From positions 6,870 through 70,869 of the forward strand of contig CAYLYS010000003.1 in the NCBI GenBank assembly GCA_964388175.1: DNA of 64,000 nt, given 5' to 3'. Origin of the DNA: an uncultured Chromatiales bacterium. GTDB taxonomy: Bacteria; Pseudomonadota; Gammaproteobacteria; SZUA-140. The notes below the pieces were generated by a model that did no database searches, was not told the DNA's origin, and was given only the letters and a program-made list of their open reading frames with translations. This document shows positions 40,995 through 57,945 of the stretch, in pieces; positions within the stretch are counted from its first letter, which is position 1; each line of letters begins with the position of its first letter. Made by a program: the position numbers and the translations under genes.

Positions 40995-41002
40995 GACGAC
41001 CT

Positions 41003-41347
41003 CTATGGTTTGAGCAACAGCGCCAGCAGTGCCAGCGCGATGACGGTTGCAGCGGTTCCGACCCAGGCGCGGGTAGCGCTCGCCGCGGTGAATACCCACA
41101 GCACCGCGATCAGCCAGACGGTGAAGCTGAACAGCATGGCGCCGTAGGTGGCCAGTTCATTGGGGCCGGGCAATATGCCGGTGATCACGGGCACGCTCAG
41201 GCCGGCGATCAGAAACCCGCCGACCGCGGCAGCCAGGACACGGGAAAAGACCGCCCAGCGATGGCGCGCGCCATCGGACAAAGTGCGGGATCCGGGTATT
41301 TTCATCAGCGCCGGCATACCAGGCGCGCCTGCGCGTTTACTGTTCAT
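41003..41347 (-). CDS. Small membrane protein (DUF3649-like, iron-uptake associated)
   Basis: 114 aa, 3 predicted TM; sits between the binding-protein and PepSY genes with overlapping stop/start. Confidence 0.45.
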   Translation of the reverse strand: MNSKRAGAPGMPALMKIPGSRTLSDGARHRWAVFSRVLAAAVGGFLIAGLSVPVITGILPGPNELATYGAMLFSFTVWLIAVLWVFTAASATRAWVGTAATVIALALLALLLKP

Positions 41348-42416: not shown

Positions 42417-42462
42417 GGGAATGCTCCTGGGAGACGAGGTTGGGAATCTGGTGGACACGGGA

Positions 42463-43902
42463 TCAGCGCAGGGCGGCCAGCCACTGCAGGCGGCGGACGT
42501 CGCCGGTTTTGCCGCGCGGCGCCGGTATGGCCGAGCCGATGGCGGCCGCGGCCAGAATGGATCCGTTGAAAGGCGGATCCTGGCGGGCCAGCGCCGCATT
42601 GAGGCGCTGCGCGATTTCGCGGGTTGCGGCCGCGGCAGCGTCGTCTGGCACGTGATCGGGGCGCAGGAACTGCAGCCATCCTGCCCAGGCCAGCATCTGC
42701 AGCGCCTGGCCGACGAATGCCGGCTGCTCCGCGTAAACGGGCAGGGCGGCCAGCTCGGCATGGCTGCGTGGGCCATCCTGCAATGCCGCGAGCAAGGGGG
42801 CGACGTCGGCCATCGGCAGCTTCACCGGGCCGATACGCGATTCGAGCGTCAGCGTGCCGCCGGTTGATACGCTGGTCGATACGCTGGTCGATACCGGGGC
42901 TGCGGGCGCGGCGGGCAGCAGGCAGACGCGCTGTGCCCGCTGCGCTGCGTGGTGTGCGTCGTCCGGCAGCAGATTGCCGTCGGGATGGCGGCGCTGATAG
43001 AGATCGCAGCGCTGGGTCTGGTAGCGCGCGAGATCCTTGAAAGTCTCTACCGCCGCCGCGTCGGCGCCGCCGCGGCGCAGTTCTTCCAGCAGGGCCAGCA
43101 TGCCCGGAGGCAGTGACGCCGCATCGATATTTTCATGAGGTATGGCGCTGCCGGCGTATTCGCAGTCGGCGTTGGCGAAGTCCGCCATCACGTCGGCGAC
43201 GTGCAGCACATCCCAGTGTTCGTTGAGGTACTCATGGGCGAGGAAAGCGGCGTTGACCTCGTCCAGGGCGCGATCGTCCTGCAGCGTGCGCGGATGCTCC
43301 TGGAAGTAGCCGGCGCCGGCGTCCGCCATGCGCTGCAGCAGGGACAGGCCGGAGCGGACCCTGTCAGTGCTGGACCCCGGCAGGTTTTGCGTGGCCATGC
43401 GCATCAGGCTGCGCGCGGCGGCGAACGAGGCCGAGCCGGGATGACTGAGATAGGAAACGTAAAGCACACCGCCGGGTTTGAGCTTGCGCGCGGCAATGCC
43501 TTGTATGGCCGCTCTGGCAGCGGTGTCGATCCATGAATAGACGCCGTGCATCACGAGGAAGTCACAGCGGGGAATCCGTTCGTCCGCAGCCGCAATCACC
43601 TGGTCGAAGTCCAGGCAGTGGAAGCCGGCATTGCAGATGCCGGTCGATTCGGCCAGCGCATTTGCCTGCTCGATGGCGGCGGCATTGATGTCGATGCCGA
43701 TGAAGCGGCCGAGCGGATTGGTGGCGGCGGCCACCAGGGTACCCAGACCCGAACCGCATCCCAGCTCAAGCCAGGTATACGGTCGGGTCGGGTCAGGTAT
43801 GCGACGGCCAAGGGCTGTGAGGACCGACGCCATCCACACCGGCATGGTTTCACGGTGAAAATGCCGGGGATAGGCAACGTCGGTGATATAGCCCTTGTGC
43901 AT
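42463..43902 (-). CDS. Class I SAM-dependent methyltransferase with C-terminal methyltransferase-regulatory domain
   Basis: SAM motif I LELGCGSGLGTLVAAA, motif post-I IGIDIN, motif II VLYVSY; 479 aa. Confidence 0.7.
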   Translation of the reverse strand: MHKGYITDVAYPRHFHRETMPVWMASVLTALGRRIPDPTRPYTWLELGCGSGLGTLVAAATNPLGRFIGIDINAAAIEQANALAESTGICNAGFHCLDFDQVIAAADERIPRCDFLVMHGVYSWIDTAARAAIQGIAARKLKPGGVLYVSYLSHPGSASFAAARSLMRMATQNLPGSSTDRVRSGLSLLQRMADAGAGYFQEHPRTLQDDRALDEVNAAFLAHEYLNEHWDVLHVADVMADFANADCEYAGSAIPHENIDAASLPPGMLALLEELRRGGADAAAVETFKDLARYQTQRCDLYQRRHPDGNLLPDDAHHAAQRAQRVCLLPAAPAAPVSTSVSTSVSTGGTLTLESRIGPVKLPMADVAPLLAALQDGPRSHAELAALPVYAEQPAFVGQALQMLAWAGWLQFLRPDHVPDDAAAAATREIAQRLNAALARQDPPFNGSILAAAAIGSAIPAPRGKTGDVRRLQWLAALR

Positions 43903-43911
43903 ATGCTGCCG

Positions 43912-46245
43912 TCAGAACGAGGCCGTGTAGGTGACGTAGTAGGCGCGCCCCGGTTCGTTATAGGTCAGCGCGCCGGCGCCCGTGGTGATCACCCGGTCTT
44001 CCAGCGGTCCGGCGGCGACGTTTGCCGATGCCAGGCGCGCGGCGCGCTTGATCTCACGGTCGAACAGGTTGCTGACGCCGAAGCCGACACGATGGTGACG
44101 GTTGAATTCCCAGGTGCCGTTGAGCCCGACCAGTACGTAGGAAGGACGCTCGCGCACCGCAAGTCCGGTCATGGGATAACCGTGGTAGCTCACCGTGCGC
44201 GGCGTGCGGCGGCCGTAGAGCGTGCTCGTCAGCTGCATCGAAAAGCTTTCCGTGGTGCGCCAGAACAGCGAGCTGTTGAGTGTGTATTTCGGGATGATGG
44301 ACAGTGGCTGGCCGGTTTCCGTGCTGTGGTTCTTCAGCATCCAGGTGATGTTGTTGTAGAACTTCAGCCGGTTTCCGTTCGTGCCGAGCAGCGGCACGTT
44401 GAAGCTGCCCTCGAAGCCTTCGACCAAGGCCTTGCCGCCGTTCTTCCACTGGAAGTTGGCGGGACTGTCTATCACGCCGTCTTCCAGGTCTGCCAGGAGA
44501 TCCTGTATCGACACCGGGGAGTCCGCGACGATGCGGTTCTTGTAGTCGTTGCGGAAGTAAGCGAGGCTGCTGTCCCAGCCGTTCGGGCCGTTCCAGGCCA
44601 CACCGATTTCCTTGTTGACGCTGGTTTCCGCATCCAGGTCGGGGTTGCCGCTGACGCCGCAATCGTAATCGTCGCCGCTGATCAGGCCCAGATCGTTGCC
44701 GTTGTACGGGCAGGCGCCGCCGAGATTAGACAGGTAGCTCGGCGCGGTCTGGTAGAGCGTGGGTGCCTTGAACACGCGCGCGATACCGCCCTTGAGAGAA
44801 AAACCGCCGCCGAGCTCATAGAAGGCATTGAAGCTGGGTGACCAGTTGTTGCCGAACTGGCTGTGATGATCGAAGCGGATGCCCGGGATCAGCATCAGCG
44901 ACTGGCCGACGGCGATGCTGTCTTCCAGATAAAAGGCGATGGTGTCGTTTTTTATTTCGACGAAACCATCGCCGCCGGGTGTCGAACCGGCGCCACCGCC
45001 CGCATTCTGCAGCAGCGCATTGTTGTCGAGCAGTTTCGTGCTGCGGAACTCGATACCGGTGGTGAGGATCTGGTCGAGGCTGCCGAGGCTCAGCGGCGTG
45101 TTCAGCTCACCGTTGACGAAGTAGTTGTCCATGTCCGAGCGCTGCGTGTCGCCCTCGGTACCGCAGTTGGCCTCGCCCATGCCGCCCGCACCCTGGCGGC
45201 AGTTGATCGTGTCCGTGTTCTCGTACTGGAAGAGCAGGCGCGAACTGCCGAGGCTGTCCCACGTTCCGCGATGCGTCACAGCGGCATTGCGGCGATAGAC
45301 GCGGCGGGTCTCGGCGCCTCTGTCGGCCCATTCCTGCATCAGGGCGCTGGGGGTGGTATTGGCCGCTTCGCCTGCGTAGATGTTGCCCTGGCGGCTGAAG
45401 CCGGCCTCGAATTCCACGACCTGGTCGGGCGTCAGATCCCAGCGCAGCAGGCCGGTGGCGTCGCGGTTGCGGCGGCCTTCGCGGCCGGCGATCCAGTTGG
45501 GGTCGCCTTCGTCGGTGACGCCGTTGATGGTGGGCTCGTCACCGTCGGTCTTGGCCGCACTGCCGTACAGGCGGAACGACAGATCGCCGACAATCGGGCC
45601 GGCGAGATTGAAGCCCAGGCGGCGCGTGCCGTTTCCTTCCAGTTCGTCTTCCGGCTTGCTGGCATAGGCGGTGATGGAGCCGGAGAAGTCGCCGGTGGGC
45701 TTCTTGGTGATGATGTTGATCACACCACCTGAAGCGCCGGAGCCGTAGCGCGCGGCGGCCGGGCCGCGGATGATCTCGATGCGCTCGATCTGGTCGGCCG
45801 GCACCCAGTTGGTGTCGCCACCGGTGTCGCGGTCGCCGGTGCGGCGCGTGATGGCGCCCTGGCGCGACTGCACGGGTTTGCCGTCGATCAGGATCATGGT
45901 GTTTTCCGCACCCATGCCGCGGATGTCGATTTCGCGCTGATTGCCGTAGGCGCCGACCGAGCTGGCGCCGGAGAGGCTGATGCCGGGCTGGGTCATGAGG
46001 ATCTCGGACAGATCGTTGGCGGGCGGACGATACTTGAGATCCTCTGCCGTGATGATCGAAACGCCCAGCGACTGCTTGAGTTCCTCCTCGGCGGTGTTGA
46101 CCACGCGGAGTGTGGACAGGGTGACTTCGGGCGTTTCGTCCGCTATCGCGTCGATAGTTTGCGCGGCTACGGGCAGCATGGGGGTCAGTACCAGGCCGAG
46201 GGCGGCAGCCATCGGCTTCAGGCGGAAGACGTGTTGTTCTCGCAC
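43912..46245 (-). CDS. TonB-dependent siderophore receptor
   Basis: Signal peptide, TonB box ETPEVTLSTLRVV, plug domain (GGVINIITKKP), 22-strand barrel, terminal ...YVTYTASF; GTG start with GGAGAG SD. Confidence 0.9.
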   Translation of the reverse strand: MREQHVFRLKPMAAALGLVLTPMLPVAAQTIDAIADETPEVTLSTLRVVNTAEEELKQSLGVSIITAEDLKYRPPANDLSEILMTQPGISLSGASSVGAYGNQREIDIRGMGAENTMILIDGKPVQSRQGAITRRTGDRDTGGDTNWVPADQIERIEIIRGPAAARYGSGASGGVINIITKKPTGDFSGSITAYASKPEDELEGNGTRRLGFNLAGPIVGDLSFRLYGSAAKTDGDEPTINGVTDEGDPNWIAGREGRRNRDATGLLRWDLTPDQVVEFEAGFSRQGNIYAGEAANTTPSALMQEWADRGAETRRVYRRNAAVTHRGTWDSLGSSRLLFQYENTDTINCRQGAGGMGEANCGTEGDTQRSDMDNYFVNGELNTPLSLGSLDQILTTGIEFRSTKLLDNNALLQNAGGGAGSTPGGDGFVEIKNDTIAFYLEDSIAVGQSLMLIPGIRFDHHSQFGNNWSPSFNAFYELGGGFSLKGGIARVFKAPTLYQTAPSYLSNLGGACPYNGNDLGLISGDDYDCGVSGNPDLDAETSVNKEIGVAWNGPNGWDSSLAYFRNDYKNRIVADSPVSIQDLLADLEDGVIDSPANFQWKNGGKALVEGFEGSFNVPLLGTNGNRLKFYNNITWMLKNHSTETGQPLSIIPKYTLNSSLFWRTTESFSMQLTSTLYGRRTPRTVSYHGYPMTGLAVRERPSYVLVGLNGTWEFNRHHRVGFGVSNLFDREIKRAARLASANVAAGPLEDRVITTGAGALTYNEPGRAYYVTYTASF

Positions 46246-46933: not shown

Positions 46934-49900
46934 ATGCCGGAAAATCCTCGCATGGGTATCGCTATAAACGAACCGACGCTCTATGTCGGAGTCGGTGCTT
47001 CGGCGGGTGGGCTGGATGCCTGCGGGGAGCTGCTGGCGGCTGTGCCGGCCGATACCGGCATGGCATTCATTCTCGTATTGCATCTGGACCCGACGCGTAC
47101 GAGCCATCTCGCGCAGATTCTGCAGCAACACGCCTCAAATCTGACGATCGTGCAGGCCGAGGGCACGACCCGGCTTGAGCGCGATCACGTCTATGTGATT
47201 GCACCGAACTCCAAGCTGCATCTCGTCGATGGCATGCTGGAGGTCGATCCGCTCGCCGAGGACGAGGCGCGCGGCCAACTCGTGGATTATCTGTTCTCGT
47301 CGCTCGCCGAAGCGCAACGCACGCGCGCGGTCGGCGTTGTCCTCTCGGGAGCGGGGCATGACGGCACCGAAGGGCTCGGACGGATCAAGGCGGCGGGCGG
47401 GTTGACCATTGCCCAGGCGCCGGTTACCGCCGGATCGACCGGCATGCCGTCGTCCGCGATCAATGCCGGCGTCGATGCGGTGCTCGCGCCGGATGCGATT
47501 CCGGCGGCTCTCATCGCGTTCGCCGAGCATGGCGTGCGGCCGTTGCCGCGGCACGCGGAGGATGGAAACGACGGGCCGGGCGGTGCACGCGATCAGATGA
47601 TCGGCTTTGCGAGCATTCTGCATCAGATCGGTACGATGGCGGATATCGATTTTGACGATTACAAGCCCGGTACGCTGCAGCGCCGGGCCCTGCGTCGCAT
47701 GAACCTTAAAGGTATCGAGACGTGGGATGACTATGCGCATTACCTGGGCGATAACCCCGACGAACTCGATGCGCTCTATCGTGATGTGATGATAGGCGTG
47801 ACCGAATTCTTCCGTGAGCCCGCGGTTTGGGAGCGGCTTGCGGCGGAACTGCCGGCCCTGCTGGAGAGCCGGGGTGAGCCAGGAGCGCGCGCCTGGGTGG
47901 CGGGCTGCGCCACCGGCGAAGAAGCCTACAGTCTGGCGATGATATTGTTCGAGCAGTTGCCGGAGAAAGATCGCGGAAAGATACAAATCTATGCGACGGA
48001 TATCAACGAACACGCCTTGGCCATCGCGCGTCGCGGCATTTATGCAGCCGAGGCGCTGCAAGGTGTTTCTCATGAGCGGCGCGAGCAGCATTTCAAGCAC
48101 CACGACGGGCAGTTCAAGGTTGGCGATTGCCTGCGCAGCTGCGTGTCCTTCGCGCCGCACAATGTGCTGAGCGATCCGCCGTTCTCCAGAATGGATATCG
48201 TGTCCTGCCGCAATCTGCTGATTTATCTGAAGCCACAGGCACATGACCGACTCCTGAAGAGCCTGCACTTCGCGCTCCGGCCAGGCGGCTTGCTCGTGCT
48301 CGGTCGCGCCGAGACGCTGGGTCGTCAAACCCGATTGTTCGATGAGATCTCCAAACCTCAGAACATCTTCCGATCGCGCGCGATCCCGCAGCACGAGCGC
48401 TTTCGCGTTGATCCGCGGACGAGGGAGCATAGCCACGGTATCAGGCAGGCGGTGCCGCTGCCGCTGGTAATCCCGGCCCACCTGCGCGAATCGGCACCGG
48501 ATCGCCGTATCGATCAGTTTGTGCTGCGCCAGCACACGCCGGCCTGTGTCGTGATCAATGCCGATTTCGAGATTCGGAGTTTCTACGGTCAGACCCAGCC
48601 TTATCTCGCGCCGCCGACCGGAGAATCGCACCAGGATCTGCTGGCCTGGATGCGGCCCGGATTCTACATACGATTGCGTTCCGCACTTAAGCAGGTGGCG
48701 GAAAGCGGTGAACCGCTGGTCGTGGAGGGGCAGATCGATCGTGACGGCGAGATCCGTCATGTGCAATGCGCGATCGAGCAGATCCCGCCGGTCGTCAACG
48801 CCGAAGGGATGCTGTTGGTGACCTTCCAGGACATCGGCGCCTCCACGCCCAGGAAAATCGATCCGGCAGCGGCGCATGAGCCGCTCGTGCATGAGCTCGA
48901 AATGGAGCTGATCGCAACGCGACGCGAACTGCAAAGCACGATCGAGCAACTCGACGTGGCAGGCGAGGGCTATCGCGCGAGCCACGAGGAATTGATGTCG
49001 CTCAACGAAGAGCTGCAATCGAGCAACGAGGAGCTCGAGGCCTCGAAGGAGGAGCTCGAAGCGCTCAACGAGGAAATGAATACGATCAACCGGGAGCTCG
49101 AGGAGAAGAACGGCGAGTTGCGGGTGGCGAACAATGATCTGAATACGCTGTTTCTCAGCACGGGGATTCCGACCGTGTTTCTTGACCGCGAGTTGAAGGT
49201 GAGGCGTTTCACGCCGACCGCGACGACAGTCATGCATCTGGTGCCATCCGACATCGCCCGCTCGATCGAGCATGTCAAGGAGCGTGTGGGCGATGGGCAT
49301 ACCGCCGACAAAAGCCGACAGGTGCTCAGAACGGCTGAACCGGATACCACCGAGGTTTGGAGTGAGGGTGGCGAGCGCTGTTATGTGCGCAGTATCCTGC
49401 CCTATCGTTCCGAGGAGGGGACGCTCGACGGCGTCTGCATCACTTTTTCCGATGTGACCGAACAAAAGACCGTGGCGCAGGCAAATGAAGCCGCGCTCGC
49501 CTATTCGGAGGCGATCATTGAGGTTGTTCGTACCCCCTTGCTGATTCTCGATCGGGAGCGGCGGATTTTGTCGGTCAACAGAGCGTTGCAGCTGGCCTAC
49601 GGTGTCGGCCCGGAACTGCTGGGCAGCTCGCTGACGCAGGCGCAGGATCAGCCCTGGAATGTATCGGCGATCGATGACGCGGTGGCGGCGGTGTCGTCGG
49701 GAGGCGGCGAGGTCAAGGATCTCGAGGTTGTGGTCCACGATAGAACGATCCTCGTCAATGTGCGTCTGGTGCATAGCAGGGCTGGCGAAGACCGGATTCT
49801 GCTGTCATTCGAGGATGCCACGCAGCAGCGCGAATTTCAGCGCCGCTCCGAACAGCGGGCGGCGGAGTTCAAGGGCGATGAGCGTCGCAAGGATGAATGG

Positions 49901-50971
49901 ATCGCGGTGCTTGGGCACGAGCTGCGCAATCCGATCGGTGCGATCAGCAATGGAATCGAGCTGCTGAAGTCGACATCACTTGCGCCCGATCAACAGACAC
50001 AGATCGTCGGTATGCTGGAGCGGCAGATCGGCTACATCGCCCGTCTGCTCGACGATCTGCTCGATATCGCGCGCGTCATCTCCGGCAAGCTCGATATCGC
50101 GCGCAAGCCCGTGGATTTGATCGAAGTGGCGCGGTGGGCGCTCGACGCCTCCATGTCGCAGTTCAGCGCCAAGACGCATGAGATCTCGTTTACCCTGCCG
50201 CCCGCCAGAACGGTCTGGGTGCGTGGAGATCAGCTCCGCTTGCACGAAATTCTCGTGAACCTGCTCGACAATGCCGCCAAATATACGCCCCGTGGCGGCT
50301 GCATTACGCTCGAGATCGTCGCGGATGCTGAACAGGCCACGATCAGCGTGCGTGACACCGGCATTGGTATCCCGCACGATCTCAAGGAGCATATTTTCGA
50401 GATTTTCACCCAGGGACCGCGCACGCTCGAGCGCCTGGATCGCGGCCTGGGTATCGGTTTGTCACTGGTGTACAGCTTGGTGAAGCTGCACGGGGGCGAG
50501 GTCGAGGTGTTCAGCGCCGGCGCAGGCCAGGGCAGCGAGTTCAGGGTCAGGCTGCCGCGTATCCAGCATGCCGGAGAGGCGGCGCAGCCGGCTGACCATG
50601 GGCAGGAGCCGCTGCCGACACAAAGGTATTCTCGCGTCCTGATTGTCGATGACGAGGGTGACGTGGCGGATTCGCTCCAGCAGCTGCTCAAAGCGCTCGG
50701 CCATGAGGTGCAAGTGGCCGCGAACGGGTCGGCGGCATTGGACAGGGTGCAGACCTTCAAGCCCGAGATCGCCTTGCTCGATCTTGGACTGCCCGGTATG
50801 GATGGCTACAAGCTGGCGCGTCGCTTGCGTGATGAACTGCCGGAGGTGGTGTTGATTGCGATAACGGGCTATCAGGCGGATAGCGACCGCCTCAAGGCCG
50901 CGGGGTTTGACCATCATATGATCAAGCCGATCAGTATCGAACGCCTGTCGCGTTTGTTGCATCTGAAGTGA
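46934..50971 (+). CDS. Giant hybrid signalling protein: CheB methylesterase + CheR methyltransferase + coiled-coil + PAS domains + HisKA/HATPase_c + C-terminal receiver
   Basis: 1345 aa: CheB-like N-terminus (GASAGGLDA...VLSGAGHDGTEGL), CheR (FFREPAVWERL...WVAGCATGEEAYSLAM), ELQSSNEELEASKEELEALNEE coiled coil, H-box VLGHELRNPIGAI, G-boxes, REC (RVLIVDDEGDVADSL...DLGLPGMDG). Confidence 0.85.
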   Translation: MPENPRMGIAINEPTLYVGVGASAGGLDACGELLAAVPADTGMAFILVLHLDPTRTSHLAQILQQHASNLTIVQAEGTTRLERDHVYVIAPNSKLHLVDGMLEVDPLAEDEARGQLVDYLFSSLAEAQRTRAVGVVLSGAGHDGTEGLGRIKAAGGLTIAQAPVTAGSTGMPSSAINAGVDAVLAPDAIPAALIAFAEHGVRPLPRHAEDGNDGPGGARDQMIGFASILHQIGTMADIDFDDYKPGTLQRRALRRMNLKGIETWDDYAHYLGDNPDELDALYRDVMIGVTEFFREPAVWERLAAELPALLESRGEPGARAWVAGCATGEEAYSLAMILFEQLPEKDRGKIQIYATDINEHALAIARRGIYAAEALQGVSHERREQHFKHHDGQFKVGDCLRSCVSFAPHNVLSDPPFSRMDIVSCRNLLIYLKPQAHDRLLKSLHFALRPGGLLVLGRAETLGRQTRLFDEISKPQNIFRSRAIPQHERFRVDPRTREHSHGIRQAVPLPLVIPAHLRESAPDRRIDQFVLRQHTPACVVINADFEIRSFYGQTQPYLAPPTGESHQDLLAWMRPGFYIRLRSALKQVAESGEPLVVEGQIDRDGEIRHVQCAIEQIPPVVNAEGMLLVTFQDIGASTPRKIDPAAAHEPLVHELEMELIATRRELQSTIEQLDVAGEGYRASHEELMSLNEELQSSNEELEASKEELEALNEEMNTINRELEEKNGELRVANNDLNTLFLSTGIPTVFLDRELKVRRFTPTATTVMHLVPSDIARSIEHVKERVGDGHTADKSRQVLRTAEPDTTEVWSEGGERCYVRSILPYRSEEGTLDGVCITFSDVTEQKTVAQANEAALAYSEAIIEVVRTPLLILDRERRILSVNRALQLAYGVGPELLGSSLTQAQDQPWNVSAIDDAVAAVSSGGGEVKDLEVVVHDRTILVNVRLVHSRAGEDRILLSFEDATQQREFQRRSEQRAAEFKGDERRKDEWIAVLGHELRNPIGAISNGIELLKSTSLAPDQQTQIVGMLERQIGYIARLLDDLLDIARVISGKLDIARKPVDLIEVARWALDASMSQFSAKTHEISFTLPPARTVWVRGDQLRLHEILVNLLDNAAKYTPRGGCITLEIVADAEQATISVRDTGIGIPHDLKEHIFEIFTQGPRTLERLDRGLGIGLSLVYSLVKLHGGEVEVFSAGAGQGSEFRVRLPRIQHAGEAAQPADHGQEPLPTQRYSRVLIVDDEGDVADSLQQLLKALGHEVQVAANGSAALDRVQTFKPEIALLDLGLPGMDGYKLARRLRDELPEVVLIAITGYQADSDRLKAAGFDHHMIKPISIERLSRLLHLK

Positions 50972-51374
50972 AGCGGGGCGGTAGGTATACCAGGGTTCCT
51001 TGGCGCCGCGGCCGGGAACAGGCCAAGGGTCTGCCTGCAGAGCAAGCCGTTACTTCGAAGTTGCCAGAACGATTGCTATTTATGCAGGTTTCCTGTTGTT
51101 CTTAACGACAATCGCAATTTCCGTTGCAATATATGGGAAAATCCTTGCCATTAGGGGCGATAAACCGACCTACGGGAGGTTTGCAAAAATCCTGCTCTAT
51201 ACTGTGATGCTATACATCTCGCTTCCGTATATGCAGTTAGAGCTAAATGCATTCTATGGCCCTGCCGTATCCAAGGCGCCATCATTGTAGGCCGAAGAAT
51301 TGGGACGGTCATGCTCCGCTGATTGCTCGACACCAGCGCAAAGGAAGGACTTCCAAGCCACTAGAGGCGATACC

Positions 51375-51717
51375 GTATTTTGTGCCAACGCACCAGGAAT
51401 TGGTGGCGGGGTGGCTGCAGGATACGGACCGCAAGACCAAGCCGTTTCTGTTCCATCACGACGCGGTGAACAGCGTCAGCGAGGTGACGGGGCACAATGG
51501 CGGGACAACGCAAAGTGTCCTCTACCGATCATTCGGGCAGACGCAATCGACGACGGCAGCAGCCCGAACCGACTGAAGTACACCGGGCGAGAGGATGATG
51601 GGACGGGGCTCTATTACTATCGAACCCGGTACTGCTGGGTTTTAGGGCGGGGATCAATTTCTATGCCTATGCAGGGAATAATCCGATCAATGCCAATAAT
51701 CCCAATGGATTGGATAA
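51375..51717 (+). pseudogene. rhs fragment 1: YD-repeat end plus RHS core remnant, broken across three frames
   Basis: HQELVAGWLQDTD...FHHDAVNSVSEVTG..SVLYRSFGQ (frame A), SSPNRLKYTGREDDGTGLYYYRTRY (frame B), AGINFYAYAGNNPINANNPNGL (frame C). Relative to the intact copy at 52790-53010 there is a deletion of the YDPAIGRFVSEDPIRFK segment. Confidence 0.55.
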
Positions 51718-52152
51718 CTCAATAGTGTTTCATTCGGCGGAACTGCAGCAATCCTGCTTCTCGGAATAGGTGGAAATGTGAGCGTTGGCATTTCTGTTCC
51801 TGATGACTTGACTAATTGGCGTGGCTGCCGGGTATTCGGCGGTGCGCAAGCAAACCTAATGGCGGGCGGGGGTGGCTACTTGGGGTATGGTGTCAGCGCG
51901 GGAAAGGTCGAATCGGTTGGGCCATTGGATCCCAGTTTTAATTTGGATAATGGCTGGTATGCTGAGGCTGACGCAGGTATCGGGAGTGCGGCTATTGGTG
52001 CAAGCCTCCAAGGCCACGGAAAGCCTTTTAGTAGTTTGCCTTCTGGTGGAAGTGTCACTCCGCTTCCAAAGGTTGGCCAAGGCGCCGGCGTTTGGGTATC
52101 GCCGATAGGAACCTATGGTTCTGCGACTGCAGCATCATATACACATCGGTGA
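51718..52152 (+). CDS. Orphan rhs C-terminal tip CT1: Gly-rich, glycine-zipper-like putative toxin domain, out of frame with its core remnant
   Basis: …SFGGTAAILLLGIGGNVSVGISVPDDLTNWRGCRVFGGAQANLMAGGGGYLGYGVSAG…SATAASYTHR; reading frame opens right after the core NPNGL motif. Confidence 0.4.
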   Translation, partial: LNSVSFGGTAAILLLGIGGNVSVGISVPDDLTNWRGCRVFGGAQANLMAGGGGYLGYGVSAGKVESVGPLDPSFNLDNGWYAEADAGIGSAAIGASLQGHGKPFSSLPSGGSVTPLPKVGQGAGVWVSPIGTYGSATAASYTHR

Positions 52153-52543
52153 TGTCGTAGATGGCGTGACAGCGCTGTTCGGTGCTGTTGCCAGCTCTCC
52201 CGCGCAGAGTGCCGCAGCAAGCGGCGGGTTCCTTTATTTACCCGAACAAAGTAAACAACAACATGATGATTTCGGTATATTCAAAGTGACCAAGTATAGG
52301 AGCTTTGCTTCCTATTATGAGCTAGCGATTCTCCACGCATCCAAGTGGATTCTCACGGCTGTTTTATTTGTTTCTGCATTTATCTTAATCTTAGCGTGTA
52401 TTGATTTGATGGCGCCAATTTTCGCTGGCGCCTACGATTGGCGCACGGTCATGTGGGGAATCTTCATGATGATACTTTCTTACACAATTCGTCGCATGAT
52501 TGTTCGCCGATTGACATCAATCCGAAAAGAAACGAACTTCTGA
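52115..52543 (+). CDS. Putative immunity-like membrane ORF after CT1 (start uncertain; likely GTG/ATG within 52160-52420); contains a frameshifted echo of the conserved toxin tail (ASGGFLYLPEQSK)
   Basis: C-terminal part …KWILTAVLFVSAFILILACIDLMAPIFAGAYDWRTVMWGIFMMILSYTIRRMIVRRL has 2 TM helices. Confidence 0.3.
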   Translation: MVLRLQHHIHIGDVVDGVTALFGAVASSPAQSAAASGGFLYLPEQSKQQHDDFGIFKVTKYRSFASYYELAILHASKWILTAVLFVSAFILILACIDLMAPIFAGAYDWRTVMWGIFMMILSYTIRRMIVRRLTSIRKETNF

Positions 52544-52690
52544 CGAAGAGAACCTACCAGGGCTCGACCACCCGCTACGTCTACAACGCGGCGAATAGCG
52601 TTGGCACAACCACCTACACCTACGATGTGCTCTACTGCCTGACCGCCGTCAACCGTCCTGACACCGCCAACAACGAAGCCTATACTTTGG

Positions 52691-53563
52691 GTGCGCTGCC
52701 CCCGAACTTCGAACGCCCGCTACTTTACTACACTGCAAACACCAACCTGGAGCGCTACTTCCGGGGATCGAGCATCGACGAATTGGTGGCGGGGTGGCTG
52801 CAGGAGCAGCCCGAACCGATTGAAGTATACCGGGAGGGAGGACGACGGAACTGGGCTCTATTACTATCGCGCACGATACTATGATCCAGCGATAGGACGG
52901 TTCGTTTCGGAAGATCCAATCCGATTCAAAGCTGGCATAAATTTCTATGCCTATGTGACAAACAACCCGATTAACTATAATGATCCGACCGGAGAAATCG
53001 AGAACTGGCCAGGCGCGGTACGGCAAACTATAGGGATAATCGGGAATGCAGTTGGTGCTGTAGGTGGGCTTGTAACGAGTGGTGTAGGCGTGGTTCTCGT
53101 GGCCGCTCCCGAGCCCACCATGTTGAGCACGGCAACCGGAGTGCTTCTAATTCCTGCAGGGGGCTTCATGTATGGCTCCTCTGTGGATGGGATGAAGGAG
53201 AATTTCAATGCCCTGTTTGATAACATCTATGGAACTAGCACGCCATACGCGCCCGAGTTTAAAAATACCGTTACAAGTGGATTAGGTTTCAGCCCAGGCA
53301 ATCCTACTGTAAGCGGTATATATGACGCCGCCTCGTTCGCGGCCGGGATCCCGAGCGGGAGGATTGTAACTCAGCTGGGAAACTTACCATCAGCGCTTAG
53401 TACGGTTTCAGATATTGATGTCACTATAAGAGGGGTGGAATCTCTGATCGATTCATCGTCAACGATTTACGATTCGTTGTCACCCGGCTCGGCAAGTGGA
53501 GGTTATTTGCTGTACCCAAATAAACCAAACATGAATATGCTTCAAAGTGTGTATCAGAAATAG
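52691..53563 (+). CDS. Orphan rhs C-terminal fragment 2: intact RHS core end (NRLKYTGREDDGTGLYYYRARYYDPAIGRFVSEDPIRFKAGINFYAYVTNNPINYNDPTGE) fused in frame to a ~185-aa toxin domain (CT2) ending in the conserved tail
   Basis: Classic RHS core signature followed by IENWPGAVRQTIGIIGNAVGAVGGLVTSGVGVVLVA... and ...SASGGYLLYPNKPNMNMLQSVYQK*. The upstream YD-repeat piece (52540-52810, ...TYTYDVLYCLTAVNRPDTANNEAYT...DELVAGWLQ) is in another frame, so the module is N-terminally truncated and frameshifted. Confidence 0.6.
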   Translation: MRCPRTSNARYFTTLQTPTWSATSGDRASTNWWRGGCRSSPNRLKYTGREDDGTGLYYYRARYYDPAIGRFVSEDPIRFKAGINFYAYVTNNPINYNDPTGEIENWPGAVRQTIGIIGNAVGAVGGLVTSGVGVVLVAAPEPTMLSTATGVLLIPAGGFMYGSSVDGMKENFNALFDNIYGTSTPYAPEFKNTVTSGLGFSPGNPTVSGIYDAASFAAGIPSGRIVTQLGNLPSALSTVSDIDVTIRGVESLIDSSSTIYDSLSPGSASGGYLLYPNKPNMNMLQSVYQK

Positions 53564-53574
53564 CGGACGAGAGT

Positions 53575-53763
53575 ATGTTATACGGACTGTTAACATTGTT
53601 AATAGGTATTCTGATGTTGCTTTTTTCTCTGAATATTCTAACGCTGAAGAGTGCTCAGGCGGGAGATTTATGTGTGCTAAAGGAAAGATATGGCGCTTTT
53701 TTTAAGGTGCTTGGCGCGCTGATGATTGCCCACGCTCTGTTTACTCTTATAGGGGTTTACTAA
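53575..53763 (+). CDS. Putative immunity protein for CT2 (62 aa, 2 TM)
   Basis: MLYGLLTLLIGILMLLFSLNILTLKSAQAGDLCVLKERYGAFFKVLGALMIAHALFTLIGVY; starts 12 nt after the CT2 stop. Confidence 0.45.
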   Translation: MLYGLLTLLIGILMLLFSLNILTLKSAQAGDLCVLKERYGAFFKVLGALMIAHALFTLIGVY

Positions 53764-53816
53764 TTCTTAAAATTCTTGAGATTGCGATAAGCACAGGCGT
53801 TTTTGGCGTCCTCGGT

Positions 53817-54053
53817 GTGTATTTTTATCAGGTAAATAAAAAGAAGAAATTAAATAGAGGAAATAGGTGTGCTCGTTGCGGAGAGCATTTGGAGATGGGG
53901 AAATCTGTAAGGATGTCGGCATCGTATCGAGCATTTCTATTCTGCAGCGCTTGCGCGGAGCGAGAAAAACAAGCTGATGGAATTTTCTTTCTTGTATCAG
54001 CCTCGGCGGTTGCTGCATTGGTTGTGGTTTATTTGTGGAGCTTGCAAGAATAG
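53817..54053 (+). CDS. Small zinc-ribbon (CxxC...CxxC) protein with C-terminal TM helix
   Basis: RCARCGEHLEMG...FCSACAEREK...IFFLVSASAVAALVVVYLWSL; GTG start. Confidence 0.35.
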   Translation: MYFYQVNKKKKLNRGNRCARCGEHLEMGKSVRMSASYRAFLFCSACAEREKQADGIFFLVSASAVAALVVVYLWSLQE

Positions 54054-54074
54054 TGAGCCTGCCTGTGGCTCGGT

Positions 54075-54150
54075 TCCTATGCTGTAGCAGCATAGCTTGA
54101 GCCCCTGTGTACTGCTGACCTGTGTACTGCCGATAGGCAATCTTCTATCG
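54075..54150 (+). repeat. Cassette-junction repeat, copy A (contains the inverted repeat CTATGCTG-TAG-CAGCATAG)
   Basis: ~75-bp segment nearly identical to 56234-56300; each copy lies just downstream of an immunity-like ORF and upstream of an rhs remnant. Confidence 0.6.
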
Positions 54151-54250
54151 ATTCCGTTCGAGCTTCCAAAATTTCAGCGCGAGTGGAGGATTCCTTGTTT
54201 ACCCTAACAAGTCAAATATAAACATGATGCAGTCAGTGTATAGGAAATGA
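54139..54250 (+). pseudogene. Remnant of a toxin C-terminus retaining only the conserved tail (…FQNFSASGGFLVYPNKSNINMMQSVYRK*)
   Basis: 37-codon open frame starting after TAG within the junction repeat; tail motif matches CT2 and CT3. Confidence 0.45.
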
Positions 54251-54585
54251 ATACCTTTATCTCGATCGTTAGGCGCGTTGCTTTGTGTGTTGTGTTTTCT
54301 TTGTTTTGTGGGTATGCATTTCTATCAGTAGAATCTCTAGTTTGTGGTTCATCCGGCGGAGGTTCTTCTGCGGGTGGTGGGGCCGCAGTGGGTATGCTCG
54401 CCATCGCTGTGGCTATCGGAATGTTCGTGGTTACGTTTCTACCTTTGGCTATTGTTGATGTTGGGAGAGGGGCTGGCGTCTGGCGCCTTTCGTTGACTTT
54501 CAAGAGAGAGTTTATTTTTGTGTTGGGAGTTTTTTTGGCAATTCAGATTGTTTTAGGCGGCGTGTTGTTTTTTAAAGGATGTTAA
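54247..54585 (+). CDS. Putative immunity membrane protein (112 aa, 3 TM), ATGA-coupled to the tail remnant
   Basis: MNTFISIVRRVALCVVFSLFCGYAFLSVESLVCGSSGGGSSAGGGAAVGMLAIAVAIGMFVVTFLPLAIV... Confidence 0.45.
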   Translation: MNTFISIVRRVALCVVFSLFCGYAFLSVESLVCGSSGGGSSAGGGAAVGMLAIAVAIGMFVVTFLPLAIVDVGRGAGVWRLSLTFKREFIFVLGVFLAIQIVLGGVLFFKGC

Positions 54586-54837
54586 GGGCCGGTAAGTAGT
54601 TTTGTGTTTGTGATACAGCGCAGCTATTACTGAAGGATGCGGTTCGTATGAGACGGTAATCGCCCTAGTAATTTTAGATAATTTAAATAGATTGTCTGAG
54701 ATTAAGATGTTCAAAAGAATATACATGGTGGTAAATCGCTGATTCTTGCGTAACCATCGCGCCGCTGCGCGCCGATAGGGAAATCAATCGCTATTTCCTG
54801 ATGCAGCATGCCGTGCTTCAACAGAGGAGGAGAGGGT

Positions 54838-54996
54838 ATGGTTGCCGACCCCTGCAAATCGCCAGAGATACCGTATCCAGCGCCAGTGCCCAGATTACTA
54901 TGCTCCAAATCTCGCCGCGAACACGCAAGGAAAATTCGGTCCGCATCCGTTACGATCCGCAGAATGTTGTCCTGCAATAAATCCAATGAAGTATAA
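54838..54996 (+). CDS. Small basic Cys-containing hypothetical protein with a very strong SD
   Basis: GAGGAGGAGAGGGT-ATG; MVADPCKSPEIPYPAPVPRLLCSKSRREHARKIRSASVTIRRMLSCNK. Confidence 0.3.
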   Translation: MVADPCKSPEIPYPAPVPRLLCSKSRREHARKIRSASVTIRRMLSCNKSNEV

Positions 54997-55306
54997 CCTT
55001 GTAGTCATGATGGCTGGGGTGGCGTTCCTAGTCTTGGGTGCGCACTCTATTTTTTTCGATATGCCTGGTCTAGGTATGGTGGTGTGATCGATTTTGGCGA
55101 CGATCATATAGTAGGGGGGGTAATCAGGGTCGTTATTGGGTTGATACTAATTTACTTCGCAAGGACCGCTAAGTGACAATCAACAGAGAATCCGGATATC
55201 TGTAGCATGCAGATTTCACGCCCGCTTCGCACTAAGTACAAACTACTATTGCCTGCTGCGGAATGCCGCATAGACCGCGAACACCGCAACAGAAATCGAC
55301 GGCGAT

Positions 55307-55534
55307 GTGATCCCGCGGGGCGGTGGCTCTGTGGTTAAGACCTTCACCACGAACTCGGCGGGCTTCCTGAACGTGGATCTGTGGGATTTGTTTACTCCCG
55401 ACGGCTTCGATGTGCTGGAGCTTCGGATCATGAATCCGGCCAATCAGACAGTGCTGCTCCTGAACGGAGCGTGGGGGGGGGTGATTCCGGATCTTTCAAC
55501 GCGGAGGCGAACAGCCTCTACACTGTGCAGGTGA
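55307..55534 (+). pseudogene. rhs-related fragment containing a G9 homopolymer tract (55473-55481) and ending at an in-frame TGA directly before CT3
   Basis: …VKTFTTNSAGFLNVDLWDLFTPDGFDVLELRIMNPANQTVLLLNGAWGGVIPDL…LCR*; a G9 run is slippage-prone. Confidence 0.35.
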
Positions 55535-55537
55535 ATT

Positions 55538-55906
55538 GTGGCTATGCATGGTGTGTTTGATGACACGTTCCGCGACATACCATCGAATATTGTAAAGATG
55601 CAGGAGGTCGGCATCTTCGCCAGAGACTTTGACGACGCCGTAGGGAATGCGCAAGAGTTTTCCAATGTTACGAACCAGAATGCAATTCCATATTGGCCTC
55701 TTGGGCCAAACAGCAACTCATACGCTTCGACGTTTGTCGAGAGCTTTACTGGTTCTCGTCCCAACCCCATTGTGAGCGCGCCAGGGTCAGATATGGGCCG
55801 GCCTTCGTCAGCACTGCCCTACTCGCCAGCGCCGGCTTCCGGCGGCTTCCTCATATATCCAAACAAGCCGAATACCAATTTTTTGCAATGGGTCTACGCG
55901 AAATAA
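55538..55906 (+). CDS. Orphan toxin domain CT3 (122 aa) ending in the conserved tail
   Basis: GTG start one codon after TGA in the same frame as the upstream fragment; …NAIPYWPLGPNSNSYASTFVESFTG…PASGGFLIYPNKPNTNFLQWVYAK*. Confidence 0.45.
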   Translation: MAMHGVFDDTFRDIPSNIVKMQEVGIFARDFDDAVGNAQEFSNVTNQNAIPYWPLGPNSNSYASTFVESFTGSRPNPIVSAPGSDMGRPSSALPYSPAPASGGFLIYPNKPNTNFLQWVYAK

Positions 55907-55921
55907 GGGGCAGCGTAAGCT

Positions 55922-56251
55922 ATGATTGACGTGAAGCGGTTCATGCGCGTGATCATGTTAGCTTGCATAGCAATGATTACGAGTGCCTGCGAGGGGAGCT
56001 GTGAATCAATGGCAAAACAAGTAAGAGCTAACCTTGAGGAACAGCTTCACGTCGGGGACAGTAGGGAAAAAATTGAAGCTGTTCTGCAAAGCATTGGAAT
56101 ACGATATTCCTACGACGAGTTCTCTAATCGCTATCAAAGTACGGTTCGGGAGGAGTGCGGAAAATTTGAAGCTGTCAGCGTGTATGTAAATCTTGACGAT
56201 CAAGGCCGGCTGTCAGCCATTGAGGTGTTTAATTCCTATACCTGGCTGTAG
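55922..56251 (+). CDS. Putative lipoprotein immunity protein for CT3 (109 aa)
   Basis: MIDVKRFMRVIMLACIAMITSAC lipobox-like signal, then soluble domain; starts 16 nt after the CT3 stop. Confidence 0.45.
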   Translation: MIDVKRFMRVIMLACIAMITSACEGSCESMAKQVRANLEEQLHVGDSREKIEAVLQSIGIRYSYDEFSNRYQSTVREECGKFEAVSVYVNLDDQGRLSAIEVFNSYTWL

Positions 56252-56300
56252 CAGCATAGATTGAAAGCCCGATCCCTGCCGATAGACATCTTCTACTGAC
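56234..56300 (+). repeat. Cassette-junction repeat, copy B
   Basis: Matches 54075-54150 (gctgtagcagcatag…gccc…tgccgatag.c.atcttcta…); an additional shared segment g.gatgccgcatagac…gc.gcaac at 55262-55300 and 56310-56343. Confidence 0.6.
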
Positions 56301-56398
56301 TCCGGCTGTGGGATGCCGCATAGACAGTCAGCGCTGCAACTAAAAAGGCGAGGGCATAAACGGATTTCGCCACCCCGAGACCCTTCGTATCGCTCGGC

Positions 56399-56824
56399 TT
56401 GATGGTTATCGACCAAAACAGCCTGACCATCGCTACTCTGAATGCACCAAGAAGTGTTCAGTTCGAGGCCGAGGACTCCGTATACACGGTGATAGTGACC
56501 GGCATTTCGGGAGGATCTCTTGGGTTCTTCGGACTGAATGTCACAGGGTCCGTATTTCCAATCACCAACTATATCTACGACGGAGTCTACCGTCTGACCG
56601 CGGCAGACCGGCCCGCCACGGCCAACGATGAAGCTTTCACCTATGAAAGGCGAGAATTGACGCTTCAGGTTAGCGCCGGACGGCGGGCAGGCGAGGAGGG
56701 GAAGGCGGTCGAAATCGCTTTCTTGGATTTGGGCGTTGCAGAGGGATATGGCAGACACTTGGCGGCCACACTGGGCCGCGGACGGCAAATAGGAGCGAGG
56801 ATCGCCAGCGGGATAGTGTCTTGA
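56399..56824 (+). pseudogene. rhs fragment 4: YD-repeat end region (NYIYDGVYRLTAADRPATANDEAFTYE) without a downstream core
   Basis: Paralogous to 52600-52700 (TYTYDVLYCLTAVNRPDTANNEAYT); truncated. Confidence 0.5.
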
Positions 56825-56897
56825 GCCGATGAGCCCTATTTGCTAGAATCAATATTAATCAAAGTGATTTATTTTGAATCAAGGCAGGAGGAATGCC

Positions 56898-57167
56898 ATG
56901 GCCAAAGCTGAGACTCGCGTGCTAACAGCGCATGTACCCGCTCCGCTGGCGGACAAGGTAGATCAGCTGGCCAGCCGCCTCGATCGTTCGCGCGGTTGGA
57001 TCATGAAGCAGGCCCTCGCTTCCTGGATCGCCCAGGAGGAAGAGCGCGACCGGCTGACACACGAAGCGCTGGACGACGTGGATGCCGGCCGCGTCATCGA
57101 TCACCAGGCCGTGCAGGCATGGGCGGACAGCTTGAGCACGGATCAGCCGCTGCCAGAGCCTCGCTGA
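56898..57167 (+). CDS. Ribbon-helix-helix antitoxin (ParD/CopG type)
   Basis: MAKAETRVLTAHVPAPLADKVDQLASRLDRSRGWIMKQALASWI…; AGGAGG SD; stop overlaps toxin start (TGATG). Confidence 0.7.
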   Translation: MAKAETRVLTAHVPAPLADKVDQLASRLDRSRGWIMKQALASWIAQEEERDRLTHEALDDVDAGRVIDHQAVQAWADSLSTDQPLPEPR

Positions 57168-57442
57168 TGGATTTGAAGTGGACCAGCAAGGCGCTTGCCG
57201 ACTTGGCACGCCTGCATGAATTCCTGGCCCCTGCAAACAAGCTTGCCGCCGCGCGGGCGGTACAGGCGCTGACCAAAGCGCCAACAGTTCTGCTGACCAA
57301 TCCACGTATCGGCGAGCAACTGTTCCAGTTCGAGCCGCGCGAAGTTCGGCGGATCTTGGTCGGGCAGTACGAGATGCGTTATGAGATTGCGGACGGAACT
57401 GTCTATGTGCTGCGGCTCTGGCATACCCGCGAGGAACGATAG
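57167..57442 (+). CDS. ParE/RelE-family toxin
   Basis: MDLKWTSKALADLARLHEFLA…RIGEQLFQFEPREVRRILVGQYEMRYEIADGTVYVLRLWHTREER. Confidence 0.75.
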   Translation: MDLKWTSKALADLARLHEFLAPANKLAAARAVQALTKAPTVLLTNPRIGEQLFQFEPREVRRILVGQYEMRYEIADGTVYVLRLWHTREER

Positions 57443-57858
57443 CGAAGCTGAGCGACACCGCCGGTGTAACGCTGAAGGCCTTGGGCGGCGCTTTCTTGGT
57501 GGAAATCACCACGCGCACCGGGGTCTGCGGTCTTGGCAAAGGCCCGTGGTTCGGAGTCGCGTCGGTTCGGCCAATCCAACCCGCGTCGTTTCCGCGTGTC
57601 TTGTCAGGCGCGCAGAGGAACAACCATTACACATATGCCCCGGTATGATCCATCTGAAGAGCACCCATGAGGCAGAAGCCGTAGTCCGAGCCATGGATCA
57701 ATCGAAATACGTTCACGGGGAGAGCATCAGGATCGGGTGAGGGTTCGGAATCGGACGGGGGGTGGAGACGGAACCGATCGCCGCCAGGCAACAGAGACCG
57801 GCTGGGAAGGCGCGGGCATCTACTGGTAGGATGGAGCTTGAAGGGATATCAGAACGTT

Positions 57859-57945
57859 TGGTGCCGAGGAGAGGACTTGAACCTCCACGGGGTTTCCCCC
57901 ACTAGCACCTGAAGCTAGCGTGTCTACCAATTTCACCACCTCGGC
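57859..57945 (-). tRNA. tRNA-Leu (anticodon CAG), CCA encoded; its 3' end faces the island
   Basis: Reverse complement GCCGAGGTGGTGAAATTGGTAGACACGCTAGCTTCAGGTGCTAGTGGGGGAAACCCCGTGGAGGTTCAAGTCCTCTCCTCGGCACCA, near-identical in architecture to E. coli leuT-type tRNA. Confidence 0.9.

Follow-up and report, generated by a model that had tools for sequence, protein, structure and literature searches.

The window, by which we mean the whole 64,000-nucleotide (nt) stretch of DNA from an uncultured Chromatiales bacterium that was analysed (contig CAYLYS010000003.1), carries, between a hybrid kinase gene and a tRNA-Leu(CAG) gene, an AT-rich island of orphan Rhs toxin tips, each with one or two small, putative immunity genes behind it. 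A six-frame motif scan confined the Rhs motifs of the entire window to 51250-56650, and all island features given below lie on the plus strand. The original prediction, made from the letters alone, had counted four copies of rhs C-terminal sequence with no rhs body upstream. The missing body was borne out, both the motif scan and tblastn with a full-length Rhs protein of the class recovering tips only; the count was not, and frame maps together with tblastn searches using 246 related proteins resolve five Rhs-derived pieces: two core-bearing cassettes, two remnants of tips that are identifiable by their tails, and a single YD-repeat fragment. All five are truncated at the N-terminus and a different lesion disables each of them, which points to independent decay. 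Related proteins and fetched loci are cited below by their P and L numbers.

Rhs-derived pieces and the small genes behind them

Cassette 1 (51301..52289) is dead and is spread over three frames, which together hold the end of a YD shell, a cut core, a tip of the P0120 type and a C-terminal tail. Its ELVAGWLQ motif lies at 51397 and is followed by a first part of the core (51558-51633), a 37-nt deletion, a second part of the core (~51640-51717), the tip (51718-52149), tail 1 (52170-52286) and the stop codon (52287-52289); the translated cassette is 43% identical over 251 amino acids (aa) to P0120, which comes from a metagenome-assembled genome (MAG) of Sulfuriferula. Cassette 2 (52540..53563) is better preserved: it starts with a YD-shell end (52540-52805), has suffered a frameshifting deletion of 136 nt between ELVAGWLQ and the core, and from 52805 to 53560 reads through core, glycine-rich membrane-type tip and tail 2 in one open frame, closed by the stop codon at 53561-53563. 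The listed open reading frame (ORF) extends from a GTG start at 52691 to 53563 and encodes 290 aa. As had been predicted, the core is intact in cassette 2 and damaged in cassette 1: TIGR03696 (cutoff 32.5 bits) gives 86.1 bits for the former (E 1.7e-24), above the curated cutoff, and only 18.6 bits for the latter, because, as the comparison with cassette 2 reveals, 37 nt of its core are deleted. The two cores are 84% identical over 76 nt, with an additional perfect stretch of 26 nt. The repeat-end motifs also lie where they had been placed, ELVAGWLQ at 51397 and 52780, within a 26-nt perfect repeat, and YxYDxxYRLTA at about 52600 and 56570. The core ends in a predicted autoproteolysis motif of the DPxGL type, which reads NNPINYNDPTGE in cassette 2 and NNPINANNPNGLD in cassette 1, and homologues have NDP[ST]G[LKN] at the same site. 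The YD/RHS repeat model PF05593 scores 16 bits on 52405-52881, below its cutoff of 22, and tblastn relates both 52540-52875 and 56537-56680 to YD-shell sequence in P0187, P0191 and P0237. The best homologue of cassette 2, P0001, is 52% identical over 100% of the query, and the same toxin family also terminates full-length Rhs genes in L098, L099 and L107.

The remaining three pieces lack a core. Cassette 3 (54137..54250) consists only of a linker and tail 3 (SGGFLVYPNKSNINMMQSVYRK, then the stop codon), the toxin having been deleted; its tail is nevertheless matched in tblastn by 216 of the 246 tail-bearing proteins. Cassette 4 (55274..55906) is dead, with a first segment that could not be assigned (55274-55531), an in-frame TGA (55532-55534) and a second segment encoding the C-terminal half of the toxin and tail 4 (55535-55903). 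This half is 52-63% identical to the corresponding halves of P0233, P0040, P0041 and P0177, in which the toxin is intact, and the N-terminal half of the toxin (GLDTxVSIGYT..HQLVILTDT) is missing. Cassette 5 (56537..56680) is a lone YD-repeat fragment (YIYDGVYRLTAADRPATANDEAFTY) without core, tip or tail, for which tblastn gives matches in the YD shells of P0191 and P0237 and also in L090, L082 and L100. Judged by these frames, cassette 2 (52805-53560) is the only predicted donor that is intact and in frame, and cassettes 1, 3, 4 and 5 are too damaged to serve as one.

Behind each of the four tips stand one or two small ORFs, and the toxin stop codons are closely coupled to the immunity starts, by overlap (GTGA, ATGA) or across gaps of 11 and 15 nt. 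Behind cassette 1, imm1 (52286..52543; 85 aa, two transmembrane (TM) segments, GC content 0.431) starts with a GTG that overlaps the toxin stop codon (GTGA). Cassette 2 has two such genes, imm2 (53575..53763; 62 aa, two-TM), which starts 11 nt after the stop codon, and imm2b (53817..54053; 78 aa, Zn-ribbon plus TM segment). The ATG of imm3 (54247..54585; 112 aa, multi-TM) overlaps the stop codon of tail 3 (ATGA), and imm4 (55922..56251), which encodes a lipoprotein of 109 aa, starts 15 nt after the stop codon of cassette 4.

The arrangement of toxin tip and immunity gene, which had been proposed from gene order, is found again in other loci. In L084, P0001 is followed by two small ORFs: the first, of 61 aa and with two TM segments, is mirrored by imm2 in position, size and topology, and the second (L084:4408-4686) occupies the slot of imm2b and is 37% identical to it (E 1.6e-12) in an alignment of almost the entire protein; in L099, two two-TM ORFs likewise lie behind a toxin of the cassette 2 type. 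Similarly, imm4 is 37% identical (E 6e-19) to the ORF right behind P0233 in L087, and 36% identical to an ORF (L084:1025-1339) that follows the same toxin type, with residues 4-108 of imm4 aligned, so that imm4 is the putative cognate immunity gene for toxins of the cassette 4 type. Since homologous ORFs stand behind like toxin types elsewhere, the toxin/immunity reading rests on conserved pairing, beyond position, and at the level of sequence comparison this pairing is established for cassettes 2 and 4. The island thus has the make-up of orphan rhs-CT/immunity modules, in which the N-terminal and shell body is gone and the tip and its downstream cognate immunity gene are kept. imm3 has no family match. 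Two further small ORFs accompany the array. A membrane ORF of 96 aa with a TTG start and hydrophobic stretches (51000..51290) has no family match and no homologue in the fetched loci; it could, quite speculatively, be the immunity gene left over from a cassette that once lay upstream. The other, a possible frameshifted two-TM ORF recognised by reading frames only (54986..55176; MKYNLVVMMAGVAF... and, in another frame, ...VIRVVIGLILIYFARTAK), could be a decayed sixth immunity gene.

A repeat of 60-100 nt (CTGTAGCAGCATAGaTTGA...ATGCCGCATAGAC...) stands behind three of the immunity genes, at the 5' edges of cassettes 3, 4 and 5. Its copies, found as repeat families and by alignment, lie at 54081..54160 (families D3 and D6), 55200..55298 (D2) and 56245..56347 (D2 and D6), the last overlapping the stop codon of imm4. 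The stretches 3' of copies 2 and 3 have no homology to each other, and the repeat, looked for as an exact 14-mer, does not recur in the other loci; it may be a shared module boundary. A structured RNA was considered and rejected, the consensus fold of the three copies reaching only -4.9 kcal/mol. Within copy 1, a 15-nt unit (CCTGTGTACTGCTGA) is present as a tandem duplicate (54104-54133).

The conserved tail and its Rhs class

The four tips end alike, in a tail of about 21 residues (A-x-GGF[LV][LI]YPNKxNxNxxxxVYxK, more narrowly A-x-GGF[LV][LI]YPNKPNTNMMQSVYxK in the window) immediately followed by the stop codon. The copies lie at 52227-52286, 53498-53560, 54185-54247 and 55841-55903, with stop codons at 52287, 53561, 54248 and 55904. 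Among the best 120 database homologues of cassette 2, 110 end in this tail, and their toxin domains vary (Tox-GHH, Tox-REase-7, DUF6973 or no match). With a 33-column tail profile, 535 of 1.84 billion cluster representatives were matched at E <=1e-3, and 205 of them still at E <=1e-10; in nearly all of the matches listed the tail stands at the extreme C-terminus. Eight of its positions are invariant in 233 sequences (G0, G1, Y5, P6, N10, N12, Y18 and K20), and the 12 residues ahead of it are rich in Ser and Gly and linker-like. The tail is covered by no Pfam or NCBIfam model and matches no chain in the PDB, and searches of the literature with tail sequence strings returned nothing relevant.

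Two explanations for this conservation were discarded. At the DNA level, the four copies in the window share only about 72% identity, and most of their differences are synonymous, which argues for selection on the peptide and against a DNA site for recombination. A classical exosortase sorting signal is likewise not what the tail resembles, as it has neither a TM helix nor a basic cluster; an IPTL-CTERM-like signal is instead carried by a neighbouring protein with SQHop-like and leucine-rich repeat (LRR) parts (see below).

The tail leads to the full-length parents of the tips. The long tail carriers P0211 (2386 aa) and P0233 (2371 aa) combine a Transglut_core domain, DUF6531 and RHS repeats, and their N-termini, judged by eye, resemble signal peptides. 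Pfam searches found neither PAAR nor VgrG in P0211, P0233, P0226 and P0237; the window as a whole was not scanned with these two models. When the N-terminal 900 aa were used as query in a metagenome scan, 17 loci (L091-L107) were obtained with a signal peptide, Transglut_core and a DUF6531-containing body, and each of the six distinct complete full-length genes (L096, L098/L099, L107 and L100/L102 among these loci, plus those of L085/86 and L087) ends in the tail. On sequence grounds, the tips in the window are shown to belong to this tail-bearing class of Sec-signal/transglutaminase Rhs proteins rather than to the Rhs proteins linked to type VI secretion systems (T6SS). As the full-length relatives are of the Sec/transglutaminase kind without PAAR or VgrG, a master rhs linked to vgrG or PAAR, which had been suggested as the search target, is probably the wrong kind of gene, and that architecture would be the better one to look for.

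Members of this class also share a gene neighbourhood. Of the 17 loci, 14 (~11 distinct sequences) have two genes ahead of the Rhs gene: gene A encodes an SQHop-cyclase-like and LRR protein, which, where this was examined (L085 and L087), has an IPTL-CTERM-like signal at its C-terminus, and gene B encodes a small, putatively secreted protein of 210-234 aa with a hydrophobic N-terminus and no family match. Just upstream, an XrtM-like exosortase and a partner membrane protein are encoded in L085/86 (L085 6061-9909), L092, L097, L103 and the decayed locus L081 (6783-9543), and an exosortase adjoins the tail-bearing Rhs in L108 (16793-17897) as well; in four loci no such exosortase is present within 4-7 kb upstream. 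The assignment to XrtM is approximate, with TIGR04300 scores of 83-108 bits that remain under the cutoff of 125, and the generic signature TIGR04178 is passed. In a cultured organism, plasmid pLM6 of Methylomonas koyamae LM6 carries a tail-bearing Rhs fragment (WP_096876905.1) with its immunity gene and then an xrtM gene (WP_096876903.1) annotated as such by the Prokaryotic Genome Annotation Pipeline (PGAP), and thereby provides a cultured reference for the tail-bearing class. None of this neighbourhood was found in the window: tblastn with Rhs N-termini, exosortases and operon partners matched tips only and revealed no Sec/transglutaminase Rhs body, no SQHop-like IPTL-CTERM gene and no exosortase. 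Searches of the literature on Rhs with exosortases and on T6SS-independent Rhs proteins found nothing about the tail-bearing family, and both the tail and its gene neighbourhood are apparently undescribed so far.

What the tail does can be approached from its context. A linker-attached peptide that is kept on unrelated toxins, themselves the cargo of an enclosing shell, suggests a function on the side of the producer, and packaging, threading through a gate or recognition by a partner may, speculatively, be considered. An AlphaFold2 (AF2) model of P0226 (1157 aa, 27-sequence alignment) has a shell with predicted local distance difference test (pLDDT) values of 80-93 and a toxin and tail below 30, and is therefore uninformative about the tail. 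The peptide is kept across unrelated toxins while its DNA drifts at synonymous sites, all complete genes inspected end in it, and the neighbourhood is conserved. These points would be compatible with a tentative proposal, made as a possibility and not as an expectation, that the tail could be a functional signal, serving either as a leader for packaging or threading through the gate or as a tag for recognition. The tail would then mark a distinct, T6SS-independent delivery route on which Sec-exported Rhs proteins with a transglutaminase head act together with an XrtM-type exosortase and its IPTL-CTERM-sorted LRR/toroid protein, and the island would be a detached stock of the tips and immunity genes that belong to this route. 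Irrespective of the toxin domain, the tail characterises a class of Rhs proteins that has received little study, and with its gene neighbourhood it offers experimental handles on the route by which Gram-negative producers release Sec-exported Rhs toxins and on the entry of these toxins into a target. In L081 (9013-9543), just 3' of the exosortase genes, a 176-aa fragment with FG-GAP repeats has the tail at its end as well, and is a tail carrier other than Rhs or else a remnant of recombination.

Island limits and the locus in relatives

The GC content of the window averages 0.626. It is 0.639 in bases 1-50971, drops to 0.503 in 50972-51299, immediately 3' of the kinase stop codon (50971), and is 0.502 over the whole AT-rich block (50972-56680, ~5.7 kb), compared with 0.64 for the remaining window; the immunity ORFs have the lowest values of the island (0.40-0.46). 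The predicted left limit is thus sharp and correctly placed. The right limit had been set at the 3' end of the tRNA gene, whereas host-like GC returns at ~56.6-57.0 kb, ~1.1 kb short of it, and is found in a ribbon-helix-helix (RHH) gene (0.639), a parE gene (0.594) and a 416-nt spacer (0.603) that separate the block from the tRNA. The gene at the left compositional edge, outside the array, is a hybrid kinase (46934..50971, plus strand, GC 0.615) of the order CheB-CheR-PAS-HisKA-HATPase-REC, and Pfam matches to CheR (175 bits) and CheB (160 bits), plus HATPase, HisKA and REC, agree with the prediction that such a kinase, and not an rhs gene, lies upstream. On the right, the tRNA-Leu(CAG) gene (57859-57945, minus strand; ARAGORN, Rfam 54 bits) has its 3' end towards the island. 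The RHH antitoxin (56898-57167; PF01402, 37.7 bits) and the ParE toxin (57167-57442; PF05016, 60.8 bits), both on the plus strand, adjoin the array outside its AT-rich part as a ParE toxin and a small DNA-binding antitoxin whose genes overlap by the one base at 57167. A ParD/ParE pair had been named here; the ParE half holds, and the antitoxin is assigned to the CopG/RHH type.

Signs of a site-specific integration were sought in several ways. No integrase was detected by Pfam among the island ORFs of either strand, in agreement with the original prediction. With <=3 mismatches allowed, the 25 nt at the 3' end of the tRNA occur only once in the window, a repeat scan of the island yielded no att-type direct repeat, and an Rfam scan of the island returned the tRNA alone plus one sub-threshold chance match. 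In a plasmid collection, no record spans the toxin tip, and matches are limited to the core.

The source is a deep-branching gammaproteobacterium whose best RNase R relative, in the Chromatiales MAG locus L001, is 80% identical. In its relatives, the order tRNA-Leu(CAG)-rnr-rlmB is conserved (synteny, L001-L011), and purA lies 0.2-2.9 kb from the tRNA in several of them and 25 kb away in the window. Compared with L001, L004, L008 and L009, an ancestral order hflK-hflC-hisZ-purA-tRNA-Leu-rnr has been interrupted by 25 kb (window 32676-57859). More precisely, a porin orthologue (76% identical) lies 965 nt from tRNA-Leu in L001, with only a VapBC-like pair in between, and 22.35 kb from it in the window, the intervening segment containing a two-component system, iron-uptake genes, the hybrid kinase, the Rhs array and the RHH/ParE pair. 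This comparison makes 35.5-57.9 kb (35508-57859) the variable segment, of which only the 5.7 kb of AT-rich DNA is compositionally foreign. The region is absent from L001, and, in departure from the prediction, the edge of the island is not at the tRNA. The iron-uptake-like set in the lineage-specific segment (37962-46245) comprises a Fur-like regulator, a PepSY_TM protein, a periplasmic binding protein, a methyltransferase and a TonB-dependent receptor. In the closest relative, a toxin-antitoxin (TA) pair adjoins the tRNA-Leu 3' end (L001 1349-2139), and in another relative a Rhs core match lies a few kb downstream of rnr-rlmB (L002 5938-6081).

Tail-bearing arrays elsewhere are found in several states. 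In L086, the classical state is seen: two orphans with tails stand behind a full-length gene. L082/L083 has four core motifs (two of them tailed), Imm27, two PIN and two HigBA pairs directly after housekeeping genes, and no rhs body within 10 kb; L081 has kept the exosortase operon, with a frameshifted partner gene, and has lost the Rhs body; and the array of L090 is surrounded by transposase and resolvase genes. Type II TA pairs (PIN, HigBA, Phd/Zeta, ParE, PemK) flank the arrays in L082 (13386-19474), L087 (8851-9523), L088 (2931-4233), L089 (2173-2933) and L090 (3078-3667), as the RHH/ParE pair does in the window (56898-57442). The detached array without an upstream rhs body is a recurring state in unrelated genomes, often beside TA pairs.

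Origin and use of the array, and known systems

The reading that we favour, and hold with about even confidence, is that the island is a horizontally acquired, decaying orphan array that has become detached from its delivery genes and whose remaining use is immunity. Orphan modules of toxin tip and immunity gene, derived from the class of Rhs proteins with a Sec signal, an (inactive) transglutaminase head and a YD shell, would have been acquired as a stack; we infer this horizontal acquisition from the foreign base composition of the region and because the closest relative lacks it. As there is no shell, plug or export head, nothing could be delivered from the locus, and with four of the five toxin pieces wrecked the modules would be undeployable from it. 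The immunity genes have remained open, with their starts coupled to the toxin stops, and may still protect the cell against matching Rhs toxins of neighbouring bacteria; such a role, including expression of the genes and a protective effect, is suggested by the open frames, the coupling and the conservation of two of them. Cassette 2 could, in addition, donate its tip by recombination if a master rhs gene of its class exists elsewhere in the genome. Retained immunity genes were not among the alternatives of the original prediction, a reservoir of silent tips or the remains of a deleted rhs locus, and appear to be at least as likely as these. Several points weigh against this reading. No homologues were detected for imm3 or, in the fetched loci, for imm1, the intactness of which rests on their open frames alone, and the small ORF at 54986-55176 looks frameshifted. 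Short ORFs are small targets for mutation, which makes open immunity genes beside broken toxins only suggestive, and by a rough estimate the chance that they would stay open in this way is about 5%. Scans for consensus promoters and terminators gave counts not above shuffled expectation. Finally, the analysis covers 64 kb, and a master rhs gene, and with it a reservoir role, may lie elsewhere in the genome.

An alternative that we consider unlikely is that the island is functionless wreckage, the decaying remnant of a complete rhs locus whose body was deleted in place or of which a fragment was transferred. Every toxin piece has a different disabling lesion, cassettes 3-5 are short stubs, the ORF at 54986-55176 may be frameshifted, and L081 is a locus of the same family caught in such decay, all of which would fit; however, no trace of an Rhs body or its operon lies between the kinase stop codon at 50971 and cassette 1, five small ORFs are open, two of them matching homologues over their full length, and the coupling of starts to stops is preserved. 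Slightly less likely again would be a silent reservoir, from which tips are swapped by recombination in the core onto a full-length rhs gene of the same class elsewhere, carrying the immunity gene along. In favour of such an exchange, ~200 nt of core in cassette 2 are still joined in frame to an intact tip and tail, with two immunity genes behind them, the full-length gene followed by tail-bearing orphans in L086 indicates tip turnover in the family, and in Salmonella expression of orphan rhs tips through recombination in the core has reportedly been shown. Four of the five pieces could, however, not yield a working fusion, the homology tracts are short (84% over 76 nt and one perfect stretch of 26 nt), no master gene is present within the 64 kb, and recombination between distant loci would rearrange the chromosome unless it took the form of gene conversion. 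Very improbable, lastly, is a stand-alone TA-like module, in which the intact ORF 52691-53563 would be expressed from an internal promoter with the two intact genes imm2 and imm2b and act inside the cell, as has been proposed for orphan Rhs in Salmonella (a TA-like role of RHS elements is the claim made in the title of PMC7043789): the best sigma-70-like match of the region (52658-52686, 10 of 12 positions) does stand just upstream of the GTG at 52691, but it is not significant alone, with 10 promoter-like matches against 6.5 +/- 2.9 in shuffled sequence, the GTG follows the -10 hexamer by 5 nt without a ribosome-binding site, and the frame is open only because of the 136-nt deletion.

As an object, the orphan array of tips and immunity genes is of a known kind and of modest interest. 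The closest parallel is provided by the enterobacterial orphan rhs-CT/rhsI modules (for example in Salmonella Typhimurium LT2; PMC3967940, PMC7043789), which are likewise N-terminally truncated tips with a partial core, each followed by its cognate immunity gene, in head-to-tail stacks of low GC. In contrast to the island, these stand directly behind a full-length, T6SS-linked rhs gene, whereas neither an rhs body nor an exosortase operon nor an att repeat is present in the 64 kb of the window; the island also differs in the Sec-signal/transglutaminase class of its parents, in that most of its tips are dead and in the conserved tail on the tips. Polymorphic toxins with a signal peptide, an inactive transglutaminase and RHS repeats were described by Zhang et al. 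2012 (PMC3482391, section 19). This architecture is exactly matched by the full-length relatives (P0211, P0233 and L091-L107), whereas the window holds tips only, and the paper mentions neither the conserved C-terminal tail nor exosortase/IPTL-CTERM neighbours.

Structurally, the cocoons of Tc toxins (TcB-TcC and YenC2; PDB 4O9X, 4IGL and 6H6E) are also close. In a PDB search, the core region (residues 3-62 of the cassette 2 query) matches TccC3 and YenC2 with E ~1e-12, slightly better than it matches the cores of T6SS Rhs proteins, and the YD shell in the AF2 model of P0226 is confident. Unlike Tc toxins, the family has no TcA/TcB partner; the tail is absent from all solved chains, including the Tc cocoons; and the presence of immunity genes beside the tips points to bacteria as targets, which also sets them apart from Tc toxins. 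With integrative islands linked to tRNA genes, the locus shares a foreign composition, the position at a tRNA 3' end and a TA pair at its edge, and it differs from them in having no integrase among its ORFs, no repeat of the tRNA 3' end and an AT-rich part that stops 1.1 kb short.

For the proposed function, polyimmunity loci and orphan immunity arrays (Vibrio cholerae, PMC5361080; the immunity islet of Salmonella Typhi, PMC7400221) are the systems to compare. The polyimmunity locus is defined as a series of tandem immunity genes never broken by toxin cassettes (Zhang et al. 2012, section 39), and the island departs from this definition because a toxin remnant stands ahead of each immunity gene or pair. 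What these loci and the island have in common is that immunity genes against toxins that are not deployed are gathered at one variable locus, and the role proposed for polyimmunity loci, pre-emptive protection, is the one that we propose for the island. The recurrence of detached arrays in this Rhs class is relevant to the question whether stacks of this kind are maintained for immunity instead of attack.

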